41,080 nt of DNA, taken from positions 1 to 41,080 of the IMG/VR virus record IMGVR_UViG_3300032219_002477; one strand, 5' to 3'. A model generated the notes under the pieces. It was not told where the DNA came from. It did not search any database and saw nothing but the letters and a program-made list of their open reading frames with translations. The translations under genes and the position numbers were made by a program. The DNA comes from a virus. Lineage: Duplodnaviria; Caudoviricetes. Below are positions 469-24,909 of this stretch, in pieces (within the stretch, counting starts at the first letter, position 1; each line of letters starts with the position of its first letter).

Positions 469-1848
469 TTAACTACCAAATTTTAATTTAATATTTTCTA
501 AAATCAACGTAACCCATTCATCATTTCTAATATATGGATTTGAGAATCCTTTTTTTGAGCCGTTTATTACGTTTTCGTGAAGTCCAGAAATATCTTTAAG
601 AATACGTTTATTTTCCAAGTATTCATTTGGAAGAGAAAGCGCAAAATTAACAAAATCATTATCTAGTAATGGATAACGTGTTTCCATTGTAAAATATCCT
701 CCGATTGTATCTTCAATATTTAGAACACCTTCCAAGAATTTCAAATTGTATTCGAAATGCGTTAAATTAACAGATTCGACTTCATAAAATGATGTTCTGT
801 TTATTACCTGTTCTATCGGTTTATTATTTCGATGTGGATAACCTCCAAAAAATTCGTCACCACCTGCACCTGAATACATAACTGTTGCAAATTTTGAAGC
901 AAATTCTGTAAGTGCGTAGTTTGTGTAACTTGAACCGACTTTTGGATCAACCAATAAATCAACAATTTTTGTAATGTATTCATTGAATAATTCTTCATTG
1001 CAAATTAACGACAAATGAATTCCTTTCGAATTTAGTTTGATGTTTTCAATTTCTGAAAAATTTGAATCCAAGTAATCAACAGAAAATGAATATTTCGGAG
1101 CAATAAATTTTGCAATGATTCCAGAATCAATTCCACCTGAGAGAAATACGCAGTCGTTTAAATCAGTTACCCCAGACGAATTATTAATTTTGTTCCGATT
1201 GCAAGAAATTTCGAATAATTGTTTTAATTTTTTCTTCGCATCTTCATAAGAAATTTCGATTTTCGAAGGAATAACAAAAGGTATTTTTTTAACACGTTTC
1301 ACACCTTCAAATAGTGTTTCAGATAAAACACCTAATGAAATTTGAAAATCCAAAACCGATTGTTCACATAATTTTATTTGTGGATTTGCATTCAGTATTG
1401 ATTTGATTTCAGAGGAAATAAATGTTTTACCACCGTATTTGTATTCGTATAGTTTTTTGATGCCGTATCTATCTGTAAACGTGTGCCAAATTCCACATTG
1501 AAAAACAAATACTGCAAAAAATCCATTTAATTCATCCAATCTTTTTAGACAAAATTTGTCCAAAAACTTCACTAATAATTCAGTATCACAATTAGACTCC
1601 AATTCGATGTTATATTTCTCTGCAAGTTCTTTGTAATTCGAAATAAAACCATTAAAAAACAGCGTTGTATTTCCGTAAACATACGGTTGTTGGTCTGCAT
1701 TCTTATCTGTAATTGGAAGCCATTTGAAATTAACCAACGCACCGTGACAATAAGACGTATTTTCAATTGTGCCACGTTTAGAGGCAACTTCAACCATTTT
1801 ATTTAGGTCGTTTTGATTTCCGTTAATTACAGCGTTTATTCCACACAT
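469..1848 (-). CDS. asnB: AsnB-family glutamine-dependent amidotransferase, compact form
   Basis: N-terminal MCGI (Ntn Cys), NGFISNY, CDTE, DRYGIKKLY, SSEIK; synthetase motifs LSGGIDS, SGAGGDEFFGGY, ETRYPLLD, KKGF. Confidence 0.9.
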   Translation of the reverse strand: MCGINAVINGNQNDLNKMVEVASKRGTIENTSYCHGALVNFKWLPITDKNADQQPYVYGNTTLFFNGFISNYKELAEKYNIELESNCDTELLVKFLDKFCLKRLDELNGFFAVFVFQCGIWHTFTDRYGIKKLYEYKYGGKTFISSEIKSILNANPQIKLCEQSVLDFQISLGVLSETLFEGVKRVKKIPFVIPSKIEISYEDAKKKLKQLFEISCNRNKINNSSGVTDLNDCVFLSGGIDSGIIAKFIAPKYSFSVDYLDSNFSEIENIKLNSKGIHLSLICNEELFNEYITKIVDLLVDPKVGSSYTNYALTEFASKFATVMYSGAGGDEFFGGYPHRNNKPIEQVINRTSFYEVESVNLTHFEYNLKFLEGVLNIEDTIGGYFTMETRYPLLDNDFVNFALSLPNEYLENKRILKDISGLHENVINGSKKGFSNPYIRNDEWVTLILENIKLKFGS

Positions 1849-1850
1849 GG

Positions 1851-2753
1851 CTAAAAAATAAAATGAAATTTTTCTTTAATAATTTTCGTGTCAATAAATT
1901 CAGAATTATTCCATTTTGCAAATGGTGTCATATTCGTTTCTGATTTAATATCCAATGCGAAAAGTTTTTTCTCTTTCATTGAAAACGTGTGGATTGTATG
2001 TGGTGTAATTTTCAGTTTATCCTGCATTGATTTATCTAAAACCAAAGAGTCTCTATTTTCCCACGGCATCCAATCCCATTGATTCATAAGTCTAGCAGAA
2101 ATCGCACGCGCTGCACCTGCTGTATGTCCTTTTCTGTAAACCTCAGTATAACCACCCCAATAAAGCGATTTTCCTGAAACAGTATCATAAAAATAAAAGT
2201 CAGTAACTCCAATAAAATCAACACCGTTTCGCATGTGAATAGCATATTCATCTAATAACTCAGGTGTCATAATATCGTCACTTCCAAGGCAAAGCACGTA
2301 ATCAACTCCTAAATTCTTACAGGCGTATGTTGACGCGTTTACTTTGGCGGCTAATGGTTCGTTTGGAATTTCGATGTATTTGAAACTCGTTAAATGATTC
2401 TGTTTCATTCTCCTACCAAAAATAAATTCAGAGTGAATAAAATCTTCATCCTGAATACTTCCAGAAATAACCAATGAAATTTCAAATTGAGGGCATTTCT
2501 TGCGTAAATTTTGAACCCCTGAATAAAACATATCTACCACCTCTGGTCTTTTCCAAACACTAGCTACAATTGCAAGTTTTATTTTTCTGTCTCCAATTGG
2601 TTCTGAATAGAAAATCTCTTCAATTTTTTTTCGATGGATTAAAATATTTGCTGCACCTGGTCGAATTTGGTTTTCGTTAATGATTTTATCCTTACAAAAA
2701 ACCATTCCATTTAAACCTGTAAGTGAGTTACTGAGGACTTTAAATTTTCTCAT
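1851..2753 (-). CDS. GT-A fold (GT2-like) glycosyltransferase with an extra N-terminal domain of about 47 aa
   Basis: IVASVWKRPE first-strand motif, PLAAKVNA, and LGSDD acidic motif typical of GT2-like enzymes. Confidence 0.75.
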   Translation of the reverse strand: MRKFKVLSNSLTGLNGMVFCKDKIINENQIRPGAANILIHRKKIEEIFYSEPIGDRKIKLAIVASVWKRPEVVDMFYSGVQNLRKKCPQFEISLVISGSIQDEDFIHSEFIFGRRMKQNHLTSFKYIEIPNEPLAAKVNASTYACKNLGVDYVLCLGSDDIMTPELLDEYAIHMRNGVDFIGVTDFYFYDTVSGKSLYWGGYTEVYRKGHTAGAARAISARLMNQWDWMPWENRDSLVLDKSMQDKLKITPHTIHTFSMKEKKLFALDIKSETNMTPFAKWNNSEFIDTKIIKEKFHFIF

Positions 2754-2766
2754 TGTTTATTGATTA

Positions 2767-3051
2767 TTAATTATTATCTGAACGTATTTCAGCGCACTTA
2801 GTACAATAAGTAAATGAATTAAATGCGCTTTGTTTATAATCGTGTTCACAAATATCAGTATCTTCAGAATCAGATATAATTTCTATACTGTCTATTTTTG
2901 ATTTAATTATTTGTAATTCATAAAGGATATAACACAACAAACCCATTACAAATAAATGTAAATAATTTTTATGCAAATAACAATATAGAAACCCACCTAA
3001 AAAATAAAGTACTGTGGTATAAAAATAAAATGCACCTGGTTTTTTCTTCAT
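2767..3051 (-). CDS. Small membrane protein with C-terminal Cys/His motif
   Basis: Two hydrophobic segments followed by CEH...CTKC; first gene of the leftward operon. Confidence 0.65.
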   Translation of the reverse strand: MKKKPGAFYFYTTVLYFLGGFLYCYLHKNYLHLFVMGLLCYILYELQIIKSKIDSIEIISDSEDTDICEHDYKQSAFNSFTYCTKCAEIRSDNN

Positions 3052-3158: not shown

Positions 3159-4670
3159 ATGATTTCAAACGCTGTCGGAACCGAAAGAATTTCTCAAGTT
3201 GTGGGATATAAAATCACAAAAGGCAATTTCAATGAGACATCTCCAAACTTACCACAATATGTTGCTATTTTCGGTGAGGCAAACGTTGAATTTCAAGACA
3301 ATTTAAGTACTGCACCTGTTGAAGTAACATCTGCACAACAAGCAGGAACACTTTATGGATTTGGTTCACCAATTTACCACGTAATGAGAATTTTACGTCC
3401 TGTAAATGGTGGTGGAATCGGTGGAATTAAAACGGTTGTTTATCCTCAATTATCACCTGAAAGTGCTACTACAAAAATTTTGAAAGTAGAAATCACAGGA
3501 ACAGCAACAACAAACGGAACACACACCGTAGTTATTGCAGGTCGTAATTCTATTGATGCACAATCTTACAGCTATAATGTTGTAACAGGTGATACTCCAG
3601 ACGACATTTACACTAAAATTGAAAACGCAGTTAACGCTGTAATTGGTGCGCCTGTTAATGCAAGTGCATCTGAATACGATGTTGAATTTGAGTCTAAATG
3701 GGCAGGTGCAACTGCTGAGGATTTGAGTATCTCAATTGACACGAACGGAAATACATTAGGATTGACTTACGCTGTAAGTGACGAACAAACAGCAATTGGA
3801 ACACCTAGCATTTCAGCTTCATTAAATTTGATTGGTAATGTTTGGGCTACTATTTTAGTAAACACATACGGAACAAACACAACTGTAATGAGTGCATTAG
3901 AAGCATTCAACGGTATTCCTGACCCAACGAATCCAACAGGTCGTTTTGCTGCAATTGTAATGAAGCCATTAATTGCATTGACAGGTTCAACTATTGAGGA
4001 TCCATCTTCAATTACAGATTCAAGAAAAGCGAATTGTACTATTGCGATTTGTCCTGCACCTTTATCTGATGGTTTACCTTTAGAAGCTGCTGCAAATGCT
4101 TGTTTATTACTTGCAAGAATTAACCAAGATACGCCACATTTAGACATTAGTTCATTGTCTTACCCAGATATGCCAACACCTACTTCAATTGGTACAATGT
4201 CAATTTATGATAATCGTGATGCAATCGTTAAAAAAGGTTGTTCAACAGTTGATTTGGTTAACGGTGCATACAAGGTAATGGATTTCGTTACTACATACCA
4301 TCCTGTTGGAGAAATTCCTGCACAATTTGCGTATGTTAGAAGTCTTACAATTGATTTCAATATTCGTTACGGCTATTATTTGTTAGAACAACAAAACGTT
4401 GAAGGTTGTGCAATTCTTACAGATGACCAAACGTCCGATGCTGACAACACGATTAAACCGATTCAATGGAAATCAATCATTACTGCTTATGCAGATGACT
4501 TAGATAATCGTGCATTGATTGCAGACCCTTCATTTATGAAATCTTCAATCGTTGTAGGTTTGTCAACAAATAATCCTGACAGATTAGAGTCATTCTTTAG
4601 ATACAAACGTAGTGGATTCTTTAGAATTGGTTCAACAACTGCTGAGGCAGGATTCAATTTCGGTAATTAA
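3159..4670 (+). CDS. Tail sheath protein (Mu gpL-like)
   Basis: 503 aa; AGTLYGFGSP sheath N-terminal motif; C-terminal NPDRL; directly before the tube gene. Confidence 0.9.
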   Translation: MISNAVGTERISQVVGYKITKGNFNETSPNLPQYVAIFGEANVEFQDNLSTAPVEVTSAQQAGTLYGFGSPIYHVMRILRPVNGGGIGGIKTVVYPQLSPESATTKILKVEITGTATTNGTHTVVIAGRNSIDAQSYSYNVVTGDTPDDIYTKIENAVNAVIGAPVNASASEYDVEFESKWAGATAEDLSISIDTNGNTLGLTYAVSDEQTAIGTPSISASLNLIGNVWATILVNTYGTNTTVMSALEAFNGIPDPTNPTGRFAAIVMKPLIALTGSTIEDPSSITDSRKANCTIAICPAPLSDGLPLEAAANACLLLARINQDTPHLDISSLSYPDMPTPTSIGTMSIYDNRDAIVKKGCSTVDLVNGAYKVMDFVTTYHPVGEIPAQFAYVRSLTIDFNIRYGYYLLEQQNVEGCAILTDDQTSDADNTIKPIQWKSIITAYADDLDNRALIADPSFMKSSIVVGLSTNNPDRLESFFRYKRSGFFRIGSTTAEAGFNFGN

Positions 4671-19157: not shown

Positions 19158-20327
19158 ATGAAAACAATTTTCACTTTATTAGCGGTTGCATTTTCCGCAT
19201 TAGTATTCGGAGGTTCCGCGTACTTTATTCCAACTGCAATTGCATTCGTTGGATTGTCATTCTTACTTCCAAAGGGAGTAGTGGCAGAAACAATCGGTTT
19301 AACTCAAGCACGTGGAGTTTATACTGATACAATGGTTGCATTGTACAGAGAACGTGTATCTGTAATGTCGTTTTTTAGATCGTTTTTCCCACCAAAAACA
19401 GTTATGTCTAAACTTGTATCTATCGAAGTTCGTAGAGGTTCTGAGAAGATTGCAGTTGACGTAATTAGAGGAACATCTGGAAATGGTAACAAAGCAACTA
19501 AATCGACTGAAAAAGTTATGTTACCACCTGCTTACCACGAATTCTTTATTGCAAATCACTTAGACGTTTATGACCGTGCAATTGGTTCAACTGACCCTAC
19601 TGCAATGGCTTCATTAGCGCAAGAATCTGCTGAAATGTTGCAAGACATTCAGGATAAAATTGACCGTGCAATTGAGAAAATGTGTGCAGACGTAATGACT
19701 GATGGTATTATCACATTGGTAAATGGTGATTCTATTGACTACAAGAGAAAAGCAGCTTCAAAAGTAGCATACAACTCTACTCACAATTGGGCTGACAATT
19801 CTGTAAGTCCTTACGTTACATTTGCAAATGCTGCTAAATTCTTACGTGAAGTAGGTAAATCACAAGGTTCAACTTACAATGTAATTTTAGGTGGCTCTGC
19901 AATGAGTGCATTATTAAACAATGAGAAATTCTTAACTAGACAAGATTTAGTTAATATGAGATTGGATAATATTTCAACTCCTGTTAAAAATTCAGTTGGT
20001 GCAACTTACCATGGTAGAATTACAGAAGGTTCTTACTCATTCGACTTGTGGACTTACCCAGAAGTATATGAAGATGCAAACGGTAATATGGTTCCGTACA
20101 TGGATGCTAAAAAAGTAATCTTTACTGCTGAAATGCCGAAATTCCAATTAGCATTCGGATTAGTTGAGCAGTTGTTAGATGGACAAGTTCCACAAACAGG
20201 ACCTTACTTAGTTTACGACACAATCGACACGGAAAAAACAAGTCATAAAGTTCACATGAAATCATGTCCACTTCCAATTCCTGTTGCTATTGACCAACTC
20301 TATACTATCCAAGTTCTCGCATCTTAG
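19158..20327 (+). CDS. Major capsid protein (lambda gpE family) with hydrophobic N-terminal extension
   Basis: SFFRSFFP, IDRAIEKMC, IDYKRKA, WTYPEVY, MKSCPLPIP pattern of E-family capsids. Confidence 0.92.
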   Translation: MKTIFTLLAVAFSALVFGGSAYFIPTAIAFVGLSFLLPKGVVAETIGLTQARGVYTDTMVALYRERVSVMSFFRSFFPPKTVMSKLVSIEVRRGSEKIAVDVIRGTSGNGNKATKSTEKVMLPPAYHEFFIANHLDVYDRAIGSTDPTAMASLAQESAEMLQDIQDKIDRAIEKMCADVMTDGIITLVNGDSIDYKRKAASKVAYNSTHNWADNSVSPYVTFANAAKFLREVGKSQGSTYNVILGGSAMSALLNNEKFLTRQDLVNMRLDNISTPVKNSVGATYHGRITEGSYSFDLWTYPEVYEDANGNMVPYMDAKKVIFTAEMPKFQLAFGLVEQLLDGQVPQTGPYLVYDTIDTEKTSHKVHMKSCPLPIPVAIDQLYTIQVLAS

Positions 20328-20400: not shown

Positions 20401-20649
20401 TTACCCAATCTGTTTATTCTCACTCACCACCGATTGAAATAAAGCTGAATTTGTACCAACTTGTCCTGTTGCCTTAATGAAGTCAATTTCGACCTTTGCA
20501 GACTGAATTATCACATTTGCAAGATTTGCTATTGCTTTTGCTTTTTGTACCTCTTCATCAACGTTTTTGTCTTTACAATCTTCATCATTTAATCTTTCAA
20601 GTGCTAAGAAAATGTGATCGCGAACGTCTTCCATTTTATTTTTTGCCAT
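20401..20649 (-). CDS. Conserved small helical phage protein
   Basis: DHIFLALERLND...KAKAIANLA; overlaps the end of the HNH gene. Confidence 0.75.
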   Translation of the reverse strand: MAKNKMEDVRDHIFLALERLNDEDCKDKNVDEEVQKAKAIANLANVIIQSAKVEIDFIKATGQVGTNSALFQSVVSENKQIG

Positions 20650-21271
20650 AACTATTTATTTTTTGTATTAATTTATTTTTCAATTTGATTACTTCCAATA
20701 TTTCACTTGGAATATTTACGTGTGAATTTTTACGCATTAAGTCTGCATAACTGACCATTTGTAAGTTGTTTATTTGACAATTCAAAGAGTTACCATCAAT
20801 GAAAGTAATTTTCATATTTTCGGGAATCTTACCATTATGAAGTTGCCAAATTACGCGGTGTAAAAGATGCCAATTAGAATCTGAAATTTTGATGTACAAA
20901 TAAGGAATACCTGTATTATCAATTCTCTTCACAATTTTTCCAACTTCTTTGGTATTATGTGGCTTCAATCCTTTCTTAAACATTGTACGTTGACATTTTT
21001 CATACGTTTCAGGATTCATTTTCTTTCCTTTGTTGAATGGAATATTACCTTTTTCAAATTTGGTATTTCCTCCAAGATTTGTTCCTGGTCTTAATCTTCC
21101 AGAAAAAGGAGAGTTTAAATATTGCTCAGATTTCTTTAAGCCTAATTTATTTGCTTTATGATAAACAGAAGTAAGTGGAATTCCTAATTCCTTAGCAAGT
21201 AAATAAGTAGGAGTATTTGGATATTTTTCTACCAATGTGTTTATTATCGTTTCTGTAAATTTTACTCTCAT
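20636..21271 (-). CDS. HNH endonuclease-like protein with N-terminal HTH and FxKGxxP repeats
   Basis: HRVIWQLHNG...FIDGNSLNCQINNL; FEKGNIPFNKG and FKKGLKPHN. Confidence 0.88.
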   Translation of the reverse strand: MRVKFTETIINTLVEKYPNTPTYLLAKELGIPLTSVYHKANKLGLKKSEQYLNSPFSGRLRPGTNLGGNTKFEKGNIPFNKGKKMNPETYEKCQRTMFKKGLKPHNTKEVGKIVKRIDNTGIPYLYIKISDSNWHLLHRVIWQLHNGKIPENMKITFIDGNSLNCQINNLQMVSYADLMRKNSHVNIPSEILEVIKLKNKLIQKINSYGKK

Positions 21272-21274
21272 TGA

Positions 21275-21562
21275 TTAACGTTTTTCATTTCCTCCAATCA
21301 AATCATTGTAAGCCTTTTCAATCTCAGGAACTTCATCCACAAAACGGCAAAAATATTTGATAATTCGTTCTTGGTGAATAACCATTTTTTTTGATCTATC
21401 AAACTCATTTGTCAAAGCAACGTGTTGTCTGAGTAATCTTTGATATTCAGTATCACGTGTTTTAATAATGGATTTGATTTCTTTAGTTTGGTAGTATTGA
21501 ATTGCTATCACAATAGCGCATCCAAGTATTACAAATAAAAGTGCAATGTTAATTTGATTCAT
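21275..21562 (-). CDS. Membrane-anchored hypothetical protein
   Basis: N-terminal transmembrane segment followed by coiled coil. Confidence 0.7.
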   Translation of the reverse strand: MNQINIALLFVILGCAIVIAIQYYQTKEIKSIIKTRDTEYQRLLRQHVALTNEFDRSKKMVIHQERIIKYFCRFVDEVPEIEKAYNDLIGGNEKR

Positions 21563-21704
21563 TGTATTTGGTTTAATTGTTTACGTTTTAAAAACCCCTC
21601 CTATTTGTGTTGTCATTGAAATTCCCAGGTTTCGAATTGGCGGAGGGGTTAGTTTTCCAATGGTACGTTTGCCGATTATGTACGATTAGAGGCTTACCAG
21701 AGCC

Positions 21705-21947
21705 TTATTTAATAATTCTACTAGCGTTTATACTTGGAGCCATTGAATAGTTGCCATCAACAACAAATTCAGAATTATTCCAAACCTTAACACGTCTAGT
21801 AATTTTTTCGTCTTTTCTTTGAAAGCGTTCAAATGTCACACTTTTATCTGTTCTTTTAATACAGATGTATTTAGGTCTTAAATCGCTGTCGCCTACGTAT
21901 GTCATTTCGTAAACGTTACCTACTTCAAATTTAATAATTTCGCTCAT
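21705..21947 (-). CDS. Hypothetical protein (SH3-like beta pattern)
   Basis: KFEVGNVY...IKRTDKSVT; promoter on the minus strand at 21967-21997. Confidence 0.7.
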   Translation of the reverse strand: MSEIIKFEVGNVYEMTYVGDSDLRPKYICIKRTDKSVTFERFQRKDEKITRRVKVWNNSEFVVDGNYSMAPSINASRIIK

Positions 21948-22054: not shown

Positions 22055-22297
22055 ATGAAAAGATATTTTGTAAAATCGTTGTCAGTACTTGGAAAAAATA
22101 ATAAAAAGTACGAAGCAGGACAAGAAGTAAAAGCTTCTAATTTTGAAGAGGGAGTTATTGACATTTTGGTTAAAGAAGAGCATTTGGAGGTTAAAGAAGA
22201 TGAGGTTGCAGAAACTCCAATCGTTGAGGCACCTACTGACTCCAAAAAATCAACAAAAAAATCTAGCAAAGCTAACACCTCAGATTTCGTTGACTAA
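22055..22297 (+). CDS. Small head-associated protein in the lambda FI position (putative packaging chaperone or capsid-binding protein)
   Basis: First sense gene after the capsid and before the FII-like gene; domain of about 45 aa plus an acidic/Lys-rich tail. Confidence 0.6.
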   Translation: MKRYFVKSLSVLGKNNKKYEAGQEVKASNFEEGVIDILVKEEHLEVKEDEVAETPIVEAPTDSKKSTKKSSKANTSDFVD

Positions 22298-22734: not shown

Positions 22735-23959
22735 TCTGATAGGTCAGCAAAATTTCGAATTAATTAGAGATAGAATAGCAGAAATTCTGTCAACTGAAAT
22801 TGCACATCAAGCAACTTTGGAAGGTCACGATTTATGGACTGAAAATATATTCGTTTGGCTTGAAAGAACTGCACCGTTTGACAAAACGGAATTACCTTGT
22901 ATAAACGTTTCATTGTCTAGTGGTGAATTTGATAATTATAAGGCTACAGGTGACAATGACGGAAACTACCAATTTGATATTGATGTTTACACAAAAGGCG
23001 TTTATACTTCAACTGATAATGGTGACACAAAATCAACGGTTTTACTGCATCGAATTTTAGGAGTTTGTAAAACAATTCTTACAAATGAGCAATATAAATC
23101 ACTTGGATTTGAAAGTAAATTCATTGGTAATAGAAATATTAGTTCAGTTCAGATTGCTGATCCAAATTCAATGCGTCGTGAAAATGAAACTGAAAGTATT
23201 CGTTTAGGACGTTTAGTTTTCAAAGTAAGATGTAACGAAACAAATACAACAGCAGTTCCAATTGATTTAGATTCATATGCTACAACTGTAAGACTTTACA
23301 ATACTGCACAAGGATATTTTTATTCTACAAATAATACATTACCTCCAACACCTCCGAGTTGTACTGTCAGAGCAACTGTAATCAATTCAAATGATACTGA
23401 GATTACTTGGAAAAACGTTACTGATTTAGATTTCTTAATTGAAATTCCAGACGTTACTATCAAAGTCGTTAATTCAGAACAAACAGAAATCAATTCAGAA
23501 GTTGTTGCCGGTGGAATAAATGCAGAAATTGAAGCACCAGGAGTTACAATTACAGATGGTGGCGATACATTTGAACAACCTGCAGGAACAACTTATGCGT
23601 GTTCAGGTGGACCGACTGAAATAAATGTTCGAAATGAAAACAGTACGTATTCAGTAAATACTGATGCGGATTTGGTACTTCCAAATATCACAGCAAACGT
23701 AATTGATAGCGAAGGAACGATTATTAGTTCAGAGGAATTACCATCCGTTGAAGATTTAAGTTTAGTTGCACCAAATGGAACGGTAACTATTATAAATTCA
23801 GAAAACACAACCATTGGAAGTAAATCTGTAAAATCGAATGGAACGGAAAATTTTGAATTAGAAGATACGCAAATTGTTTTTAAAGAAAATGGAGTTGAAA
23901 TAGGTAGTGTTACCTTTCCGACATTAGAACCAAATACCACAATAAATATTATCATGTAA
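22724..23959 (+). CDS. Tail terminator-like protein fused to a C-terminal repeat region
   Basis: FELIRDRIAEIL...ELPCINVS...FDIDVY N-domain; TLPPTPPS linker; VINSxxTxI repeats. Confidence 0.7.
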   Translation: MINTLIGQQNFELIRDRIAEILSTEIAHQATLEGHDLWTENIFVWLERTAPFDKTELPCINVSLSSGEFDNYKATGDNDGNYQFDIDVYTKGVYTSTDNGDTKSTVLLHRILGVCKTILTNEQYKSLGFESKFIGNRNISSVQIADPNSMRRENETESIRLGRLVFKVRCNETNTTAVPIDLDSYATTVRLYNTAQGYFYSTNNTLPPTPPSCTVRATVINSNDTEITWKNVTDLDFLIEIPDVTIKVVNSEQTEINSEVVAGGINAEIEAPGVTITDGGDTFEQPAGTTYACSGGPTEINVRNENSTYSVNTDADLVLPNITANVIDSEGTIISSEELPSVEDLSLVAPNGTVTIINSENTTIGSKSVKSNGTENFELEDTQIVFKENGVEIGSVTFPTLEPNTTINIIM

Positions 23960-24909
23960 TGGATCCAATAACAGCAAATTTAACTAATAGTCAAACTCCA
24001 ATAGTTGTTTCAGCTAATCAAACAGCTTTAAATGATAGGAGTTACACCGTTGTTGCGAATAGCACGTTTACAGACCCGTCACCTGTTGAAGGCAAAGGTT
24101 ATCGCGTATTTGTACGTAATGGAGCAGCAACAATTAATTCAGTTGCTTATACAGAAAATACTACAATTATTCGTTTGTTTCATTCGGGTTCGTGGGTTTC
24201 TTATGTTACAACAGGAACGAATACAGGCAACGAAACAACATCCACAATTGGCGCAATTGTAAACGGTGCAAGTTCAGCAACTCCTAACGATACTGATTTA
24301 GTTACAACCGTTGAAAGTTCAGTAGTTAAGAAAATTACATGGACAAATGTAAAAGCGTTCTTAAAAACCTACTTTGATACAATCTACACAACGACAAGTG
24401 CAGTTGCATCACAGATAACAACAGCGTTAAGCGGTTATGTAGTAGGTAACGCACCAATAACGGCAGGAACTTACCACGAAGTAACGGTCGATGCAAAAGG
24501 ATTAGTTACAGCAGGCTCTGTTAAATGGGGTTTACTTAGTGGGAATCCAAACTCAGCAACAGGTGCGACCTCAGGTACAGCTAGATATTTCACATTTGGC
24601 GATGGTACACCTCAAAATGGTTATACTTTCAGGCAAATTACTTTCGTTCAACCAACAGTTGTAAGGTACTTATATTTAACAACAATCACTTCGCAACCTG
24701 CAACAGGAAGTTGTGTATTTACTGTTCAAAAGAACGGAGTTGATACAGGAATTGTAATAACTGTTCCTGCAGGTTCTGCACCTGGTGTTTTTTCAGAAAC
24801 TGCAACTCAAGTTTCATTCAATGCAGGAGAGTCAATTACTTTAAAGTCTGTAAATAATGCTACAACTACAAGCTGTGTACTAGCATCTAACTCGATTGGA
24901 ATATCATGA
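23959..24909 (+). CDS. Thr-rich fibre or collar protein
   Basis: ITAGTYHEVTVDAKGLVTAG fibre repeat motif; C-terminal beta domain. Confidence 0.7.
   Translation: MDPITANLTNSQTPIVVSANQTALNDRSYTVVANSTFTDPSPVEGKGYRVFVRNGAATINSVAYTENTTIIRLFHSGSWVSYVTTGTNTGNETTSTIGAIVNGASSATPNDTDLVTTVESSVVKKITWTNVKAFLKTYFDTIYTTTSAVASQITTALSGYVVGNAPITAGTYHEVTVDAKGLVTAGSVKWGLLSGNPNSATGATSGTARYFTFGDGTPQNGYTFRQITFVQPTVVRYLYLTTITSQPATGSCVFTVQKNGVDTGIVITVPAGSAPGVFSETATQVSFNAGESITLKSVNNATTTSCVLASNSIGIS

Follow-up and report, generated by a model that had tools for sequence, protein, structure and literature searches.

Genomic context of the locus

The window, the whole 41,080-base virus record analysed here (estimated completeness 82%), carries the genes of a contractile tail together with a head module of the lambda type (portal, ClpP-like protease, decoration protein, capsid E and Hc1); no terminase gene was found in it. 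Among cultured phages the capsid protein is matched best by FCV-1-type phages of Flavobacterium columnare, Flavobacterium phages make up 79 of the 125 records matching it, and most head and tail genes of the window have counterparts in FCV-1, suggesting that the host belongs to the Bacteroidota. The glycosyltransferase (GT) gene and the gene for an AsnB-family amidotransferase lie near the left end (Table 1). Both the 2 nt spacing between them and the divergence of this operon from the tail sheath gene are as the earlier note described. That note had treated 469..3051 as one system, but the 94-aa ORF inside this span is probably no part of it: it occurs in the two closest records only, occupying the site of the second GT gene of other relatives, and was excluded from the system. 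Neither the window nor either of its two closest records has an upstream second GT. Promoter and terminator scans gave chance-level results.

Table 1. Features of the window discussed in the text
Feature	Position	Strand	Description and evidence
AsnB-like class II glutamine amidotransferase	469..1848	-	459 aa; starts 2 nt past the GT stop; N-terminal Cys, SGGxDS loop; Pfam GATase_7 and Asn_synthase above cut-off
GT	1851-2753	-	300-aa ORF
Short linker and GT-A domain	1851..2612	-	Alignment, Foldseek, VIA, hydropathy
GT N-terminal 47-aa domain	2613..2753	-	HMM tests; AF2 pLDDT 91.5; fold searches
94-aa ORF	2767-3051	-	Within 469..3051
Tail sheath	3159-4670	+	Divergent from the GT/AsnB operon
Major capsid protein, lambda E-type	19158..20327	+	Pfam Phage_cap_E, E 5e-24; 34% identity to the FCV-1 major head protein
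Four ORFs between the capsid and 22055 genes	20401-21947	-	ORF list; one HNH
Small stand-alone protein	22055-22297	+	80 aa; domain, acidic linker and basic tail; immediately 5' of Hc1

Beyond the AsnB gene there is a further minus-strand ORF (1-423) whose product has a leucine-rich-like repeat of 20 aa (5.9 copies at a 60-nt period), and the left end of the window stops within this tandem repeat. Two other records (L001 and L002) also terminate inside the same ORF, so the repeat probably breaks assembly. No contig extended the left end, and a search for closer relatives spanning the missing region gave just the two known closest records.

The N-terminal domain of the glycosyltransferase

The ungapped alignment from which the earlier note started, between the first 45 residues of the GT and the small protein encoded at 22055, is correct in its coordinates and in its 10 identities out of 45. 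The pair has 22 BLOSUM-positive positions and a score of 43, and shuffle tests gave p = 0.003 for the identities and 1e-5 for the score. Pairwise BLASTP of the GT against the 22055 protein gave no match, so the link needs profiles. Among the best 120 of 227 GT homologues, 92 carry an N-terminal extension of at least 40 residues and 28 do not. An HMM of the 92 N-termini placed the 22055 frame first of the 575 segments in a six-frame translation of the window (47.9 bits, E 2.7e-14), the next unrelated segment scoring 6.1 bits. In the reverse direction an HMM of 120 stand-alone proteins gave the window GT a score of 25.3 bits (E 2.8e-7), against 5.8 bits for the next unrelated hit, a test that is not fully independent because these proteins were gathered with a profile that included GT N-termini. 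When 13 GT extensions of greater divergence were made into a profile, it matched the stand-alone profile with a probability of 97.9%. With profile comparison significant in both directions, the homology of GT residues 1-47 to the 22055 protein is confirmed at the sequence level. Searches of the domain sequence against the PDB and Pfam gave nothing meaningful.

In the AlphaFold model residues 1-47 form a domain of their own (pLDDT 91.5 over residues 1-49) and the GT-A fold spans residues 57-271, in agreement with the claim that the GT-A domain begins only after the N-terminal segment. The assignment to GT-A is structural: the top Foldseek match is SpsA (E 4e-9), and VIA superposes the enzyme on WrtF with a Z of 19.1 and an r.m.s.d. 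of 2.7 over 188 aligned residues. Trp67, Arg69, GSDD 157-160 and Asp240 are invariant in the alignment, and the acidic metal-binding motif that goes with a GT-A fold is conserved; matches of the homologues to Pfam GT2 families are weak or partial. The closest folds are those of cell-surface GT2 enzymes, and the window GT has no transmembrane segment (maximum hydropathy 0.81).

Position, architecture and fold of the stand-alone form

In seven of eight related records the gene for the stand-alone protein immediately follows the major capsid gene, and Hc1 is then next in six of these seven, the contig ending in the remaining one. The eighth has an insertion of ∼2 kb between the capsid and stand-alone genes, as in the window. 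The claim that the 22055 protein occupies the FI position of a head module is thus borne out by the slot in relatives but is less direct in the window, where four minus-strand ORFs intervene after the capsid gene. An insertion of similar size separates the capsid and FI-like genes of G001 and is absent from seven other relatives. FCV-1 gp24 (57 aa), a homologue that is nearly nothing but the domain, lies between the major head and Hc1 genes, and the lambda gene order puts FI in the same slot.

With an E-value threshold of 0.001, a profile search for the domain returned 912 clusters. Nearly all of the best 150 of these are small and consist of the domain, an acidic linker and an HeH-like or basic end. 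By a rough pattern, 102 of 147 stand-alone proteins have an HeH-like motif or a basic tail; when seven short ones were scanned with Pfam HeH, one scored above the cut-off and two weakly. The fused domain is more basic, with a mean net charge of +3.6 (71 sequences) against +1.2 for the stand-alone domain (113 sequences) when kinship is ignored, and of +5 against 0 in the window.

YqbF of Bacillus subtilis has a comparable layout, namely the domain plus an HeH, and the C-terminal domain of lambda gpFI is reportedly its head-binding part. The modelled domain matches YqbF (PDB entry 2HJQ; Z 4.3, r.m.s.d. 2.5, 45 aligned residues) and the gpFI C-terminal domain (PDB entry 2LSM; Z 4.2, r.m.s.d. 2.1, 44 aligned residues), but these low scores are nearly tied with, and outranked by, those for the GINS B-domain (Z 5.5) and the RNA-binding ribosomal L9-N domain (Z 5.0). 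In Foldseek, YqbF is third without reaching significance, and many small phage proteins match at a TM score of about 0.8. The structural comparison with gpFI therefore holds as a match of predicted fold to 2LSM but does not single it out; going by the model, the fold by itself is compatible with either capsid or nucleic-acid binding. At the sequence level the proposed relation to gpFI failed: no similarity was detected by profile against the single lambda FI sequence or with Pfam Packaging_FI (PF14000). An Atlas match (0.82) to a cluster with 26% Packaging_FI members is a lead only, and a weak match between the FI N-terminus and the stand-alone C-terminal region (E 0.037) was discounted. What the stand-alone protein shares with gpFI and YqbF is a gene between those for the capsid and head closure and the same small fold, and position and fold together point to an FI analogue. 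Unlike either, the domain is found here fused to GTs.

The same observations bear on where the fused domain would dock. One alternative is that the module glycosylates the virion but that the domain docks on an assembly partner other than the capsid shell (the neck, the tail, the terminase or the acidic linker that the FI-like protein contains), with tail or neck proteins as acceptors. The complementary charges of a basic fused domain and acidic stand-alone linkers would suit this, the GINS-B match shows that this fold can serve generally for protein contacts, and the module is a neighbour of the sheath gene in myoviruses and is surrounded by presumed tail genes in a second group of phages, where the domain is retained although five near-complete records gave no stand-alone copy. 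Against it, the stand-alone family occupies the FI slot, and the reported role of gpFI is to connect complexes of terminase and DNA with procapsids (PMC4493119, citing Popovic 2012). We regard docking away from the capsid shell as unlikely, with some probability left to it.

Distribution of the fusion among phages

The survey of relatives gave a divided answer: the fusion is common (92 of the best 120 of 227 homologues), but the 28 GTs without the extension include those of myoviruses with the full module. The domain is also not confined to one enzyme. Ten domain-bearing proteins of at least 200 residues fell outside the first GT search; six are long or tandem stand-alone forms and four are GT fusions from three families. 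One of the four (P0240) belongs to the same family as the window GT, two (P0185 and P0258) combine a second GT family with another GT2 domain, and the last (P0290) is a third, GT2-like protein, with a Pfam E value of 0.009 that is under the cut-off. No fusion to any other enzyme class occurred among the best 150 of the 912 clusters. In a tree of 51 GT cores the presence of the domain needs four gains or losses, three of them forced by well supported branches; the domain-less label of L006 on this tree reflects only the end of its contig at that point.

Each of the 14 extensions from myoviruses reaches at least 17 bits on the stand-alone profile. In the second phage group, which has a different capsid-like protein, the GT domain is diverged (-0.1 to 23 bits), and no stand-alone copy was found in five near-complete records. 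A tblastn search with the GT against 50,697 cultured phage records gave no match. Among 185,579 cellular genomes, in a scan that detects close relatives only, it has a single locus with phage-like neighbours by eye (L060), and this GT is free of the domain; non-phage GTs with the same N-terminal segment, which would speak against a phage-specific fusion, were thus not encountered. The L060 contig (G050) is 43 kb long and belongs to a Peregrinibacteria MAG, into which a phage contig may have been binned.

AsnB and the sugar-tailoring module

The AsnB homologues retain the N-terminal Cys in 65 of 65 cases and the SGGxDS motif in 64 of 65. The window protein lies under every NCBIfam cut-off. It resembles WbpS/WbqG (TIGR03108) in its AsnB fold, its intact catalytic motifs and a gene beside those for GTs and a sugar acetyltransferase; it differs in being encoded by a phage and in length (459 residues against a model of 628 positions), and scores 93.6 bits against a cut-off of 816.9. 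WbpS-type enzymes form uronamides in protein-linked glycans (PMC6025236, PMC7468200). The order of events given in the earlier note, in which a sugar is added and then amidated, is doubtful, because the proposed substrate of WbpS is a UDP-sugar that is amidated ahead of transfer (PMC6025236); amidation is therefore no less likely to precede transfer than to follow it.

In our survey 139 loci were reduced to 103 distinct ones by removing identical cores, and the profiles used for counting were built from those same loci. AsnB lies within 2.5 kb downstream of the GT in 59 of the 66 loci of testable length, and is adjacent to it in 37, so the linkage first seen in the window is conserved. As a description of the whole system the pair is too small, since relatives add an acetyltransferase and extra GT-like genes: a hexapeptide sugar acyltransferase, nearest NeuD/PglB and LpxA but under the cut-off, occurs within 4 kb in 51 of 54 loci and a further GT-like gene within 5 kb in 25 of 32. 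The extra GT-like genes form four families, two with weak library matches only and two GT-like by eye. Some loci also contain inserted sulfotransferase and methyltransferase genes. The acyltransferase and extra GTs are absent from the window; the acyltransferase may lie in the missing part of the record. Fusions within the module, of AsnB with the acyltransferase (L004:10861-12855) and of two GT families in a single polypeptide (L007, L009, L013 and L018), support a shared pathway.

Sheath, terminase, protease or capsid genes accompany the module in 25 of the 31 loci of at least 15 kb, which is modest evidence because the genomes are so small; terminase genes adjoin it in many loci. In the second phage group (L011, L012, L032, L033, L036, L040, L042 and L053) up to three GT-like genes are interleaved with genes presumed to encode tail, scaffold and capsid proteins, and a different small protein with an HeH end is encoded right before the scaffold-like gene.

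AsnB and NeuD/LpxA-like acyltransferases are characteristic of loci for O-antigen and capsule, as are sulfotransferases and methyltransferases. This gene content, together with the cell-surface enzymes that are nearest in fold to the GT, would suit a module that changes a glycan of the host surface (LPS or capsule) and so excludes competing phages, the N-terminal domain being incidental or regulatory. Such a role leaves a morphogenesis domain on three GT families unexplained, and the module genes are located among virion and packaging genes. Tyrosine integrases are rare (two of 50 records and none of 13 near-complete ones), which weakens the case for lysogenic conversion. We consider a host-surface target improbable.

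DNA as an alternative acceptor

The earlier note had offered DNA modification during packaging as the alternative. The GT would then modify phage DNA, possibly at packaging, and the basic N-terminal domain would bind DNA or position the enzyme. The neighbouring terminase genes fit this, as do the charge of the fused domain and a fold in common with the nucleic-acid-binding L9-N, and phage GT-A enzymes that glycosylate DNA are reported (bioRxiv 2023.12.21.572611). The same source describes these enzymes as co-occurring with 5mYOX or thymidylate-synthase-type genes and as bearing an R...DDD...EDY/F motif. Here, thymidylate-synthase family genes were found in none of 50 records and none of 13 near-complete ones (control, 10 of 14); this absence of DNA-priming genes argues against DNA as the acceptor. 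A C5-methylase is present in none of the 13 near-complete records (five of 21 overall), and a search for TET/JBP dioxygenases gave none in 50 records but, being run without a positive control, is left out of this argument. The EDY/F motif occurs in just seven of 115 homologues, the GT core has a mean net charge of +0.4, and the set of several GT-like genes with acyl-, sulfo- and methyltransferase genes resembles glycan assembly. The window GT thus shares with the DNA-glycosylating enzymes (Pyle et al.; JGT-like) the GT-A fold and a phage origin, and differs from them in having no thymidylate-synthase-type or consistent C5-methylase partner, in a family consensus outside which EDY/F falls and in a non-basic core. 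The alternative is accordingly weakened on the side of the priming genes but keeps the basic domain and the terminase neighbours in its favour, and we judge it decidedly unlikely.

A model for head-targeted glycosylation

We take both the shared domain and the conserved module as established. The best single explanation for them is head-targeted glycosylation of the virion with an amidated, often acylated sugar, on which our confidence is evenly balanced. A more far-reaching form of it, in which several uncultured phage lineages of 35-55 kb coat their own heads with an amidated, acylated glycan and have repeatedly joined a capsid-docking domain of the FI type to different GTs as a portable address tag, is plausible but falls slightly short of that. 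The suggestion that a capsid-binding domain was reused to tether the GT to heads is favoured by the shared domain and by the FI-like slot and fold; the tie with L9-N and GINS-B, the absence of FI sequence similarity and the many GTs without the domain count against it.

In the mechanism that we propose, the GT and AsnB would be part of a glycan-building module with which the phage decorates its own virion. The stand-alone protein would be an FI-type packaging chaperone, its N-terminal domain binding the prohead and its HeH or basic tail binding DNA. In the fusion a GT would stand in place of the DNA-binding part of the chaperone, with the domain predicted to dock the enzyme on the head; the enzyme may therefore be concentrated on the capsid protein in the cytoplasm. 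AsnB would convert a host UDP-uronic acid to a uronamide, and in relatives acylation of the glycan would fall to the NeuD/LpxA-like acyltransferase and its extension to the one to three further GT-like proteins. Candidate benefits to the phage are shielding, charge and particle stability. Because the GTs can lack the domain, and because it is more basic when fused than when it stands alone, DNA retains some probability as the target.

Relation to known virion glycosylation

Mycobacteriophages decorate the capsid and the tail tube with glycans (PMC12363180, PMC12619734), and virion glycosylation of Che8, Corndog and Myrna is credited in these papers to Freeman et al. (2023). In common with the system considered here, the GTs are phage-encoded, often several per genome, and the proposed targets are the structural proteins of the phage itself. 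The passages concerned do not mention a targeting domain, an AsnB or an acyltransferase, all of which are present in this system or its relatives; conversely, a C-terminal acceptor extension is not evident here, and it is in Flavobacterium phages that the capsid has its closest cultured relatives. Virion glycosylation itself is therefore already known. No account of a GT fused to a capsid-binding domain, or of this module, was found in a search of mainly open-access literature.

In the literature searched, glycosylation of tailed-phage virions is described for mycobacteriophages only, and the passages concerned do not state how the enzymes reach the particle. If head-targeted glycosylation is correct, it would extend the phenomenon to a broad set of uncultured Ficleduovirus-like and other phages, would add tailoring of the sugar (amidation, acylation and sometimes sulfation or methylation) and would make the 47-residue domain a targeting mechanism that is open to testing. 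The large unannotated domain family (912 clusters at 50% identity) would then also gain a function, and the domain would be a candidate small capsid-binding tag.

Candidate acceptors on the virion

The major capsid protein is the proposed binding partner of the domain and the proposed acceptor. No conserved Ser/Thr C-terminal extension was seen by eye on the capsid or tail-tube proteins; the acceptor could be internal. The start of the capsid ORF (19158-19290) encodes a hydrophobic extension of ∼44-55 residues (19-residue hydropathy 1.8-2.5), which could be a membrane anchor or a cleaved leader. It is found in the window and in four of the eight related records (L062, L063, L064 and L071); the capsids of the other four are ∼350 residues long and have no such extension. 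Elsewhere in the window, a 316-aa ORF (23959-24909) has the highest Ser and Thr content (28%) of the 27 window proteins compared, and its homologues lie at other positions in L024, L059 and L046; its product is a possible glycan acceptor or fibre.
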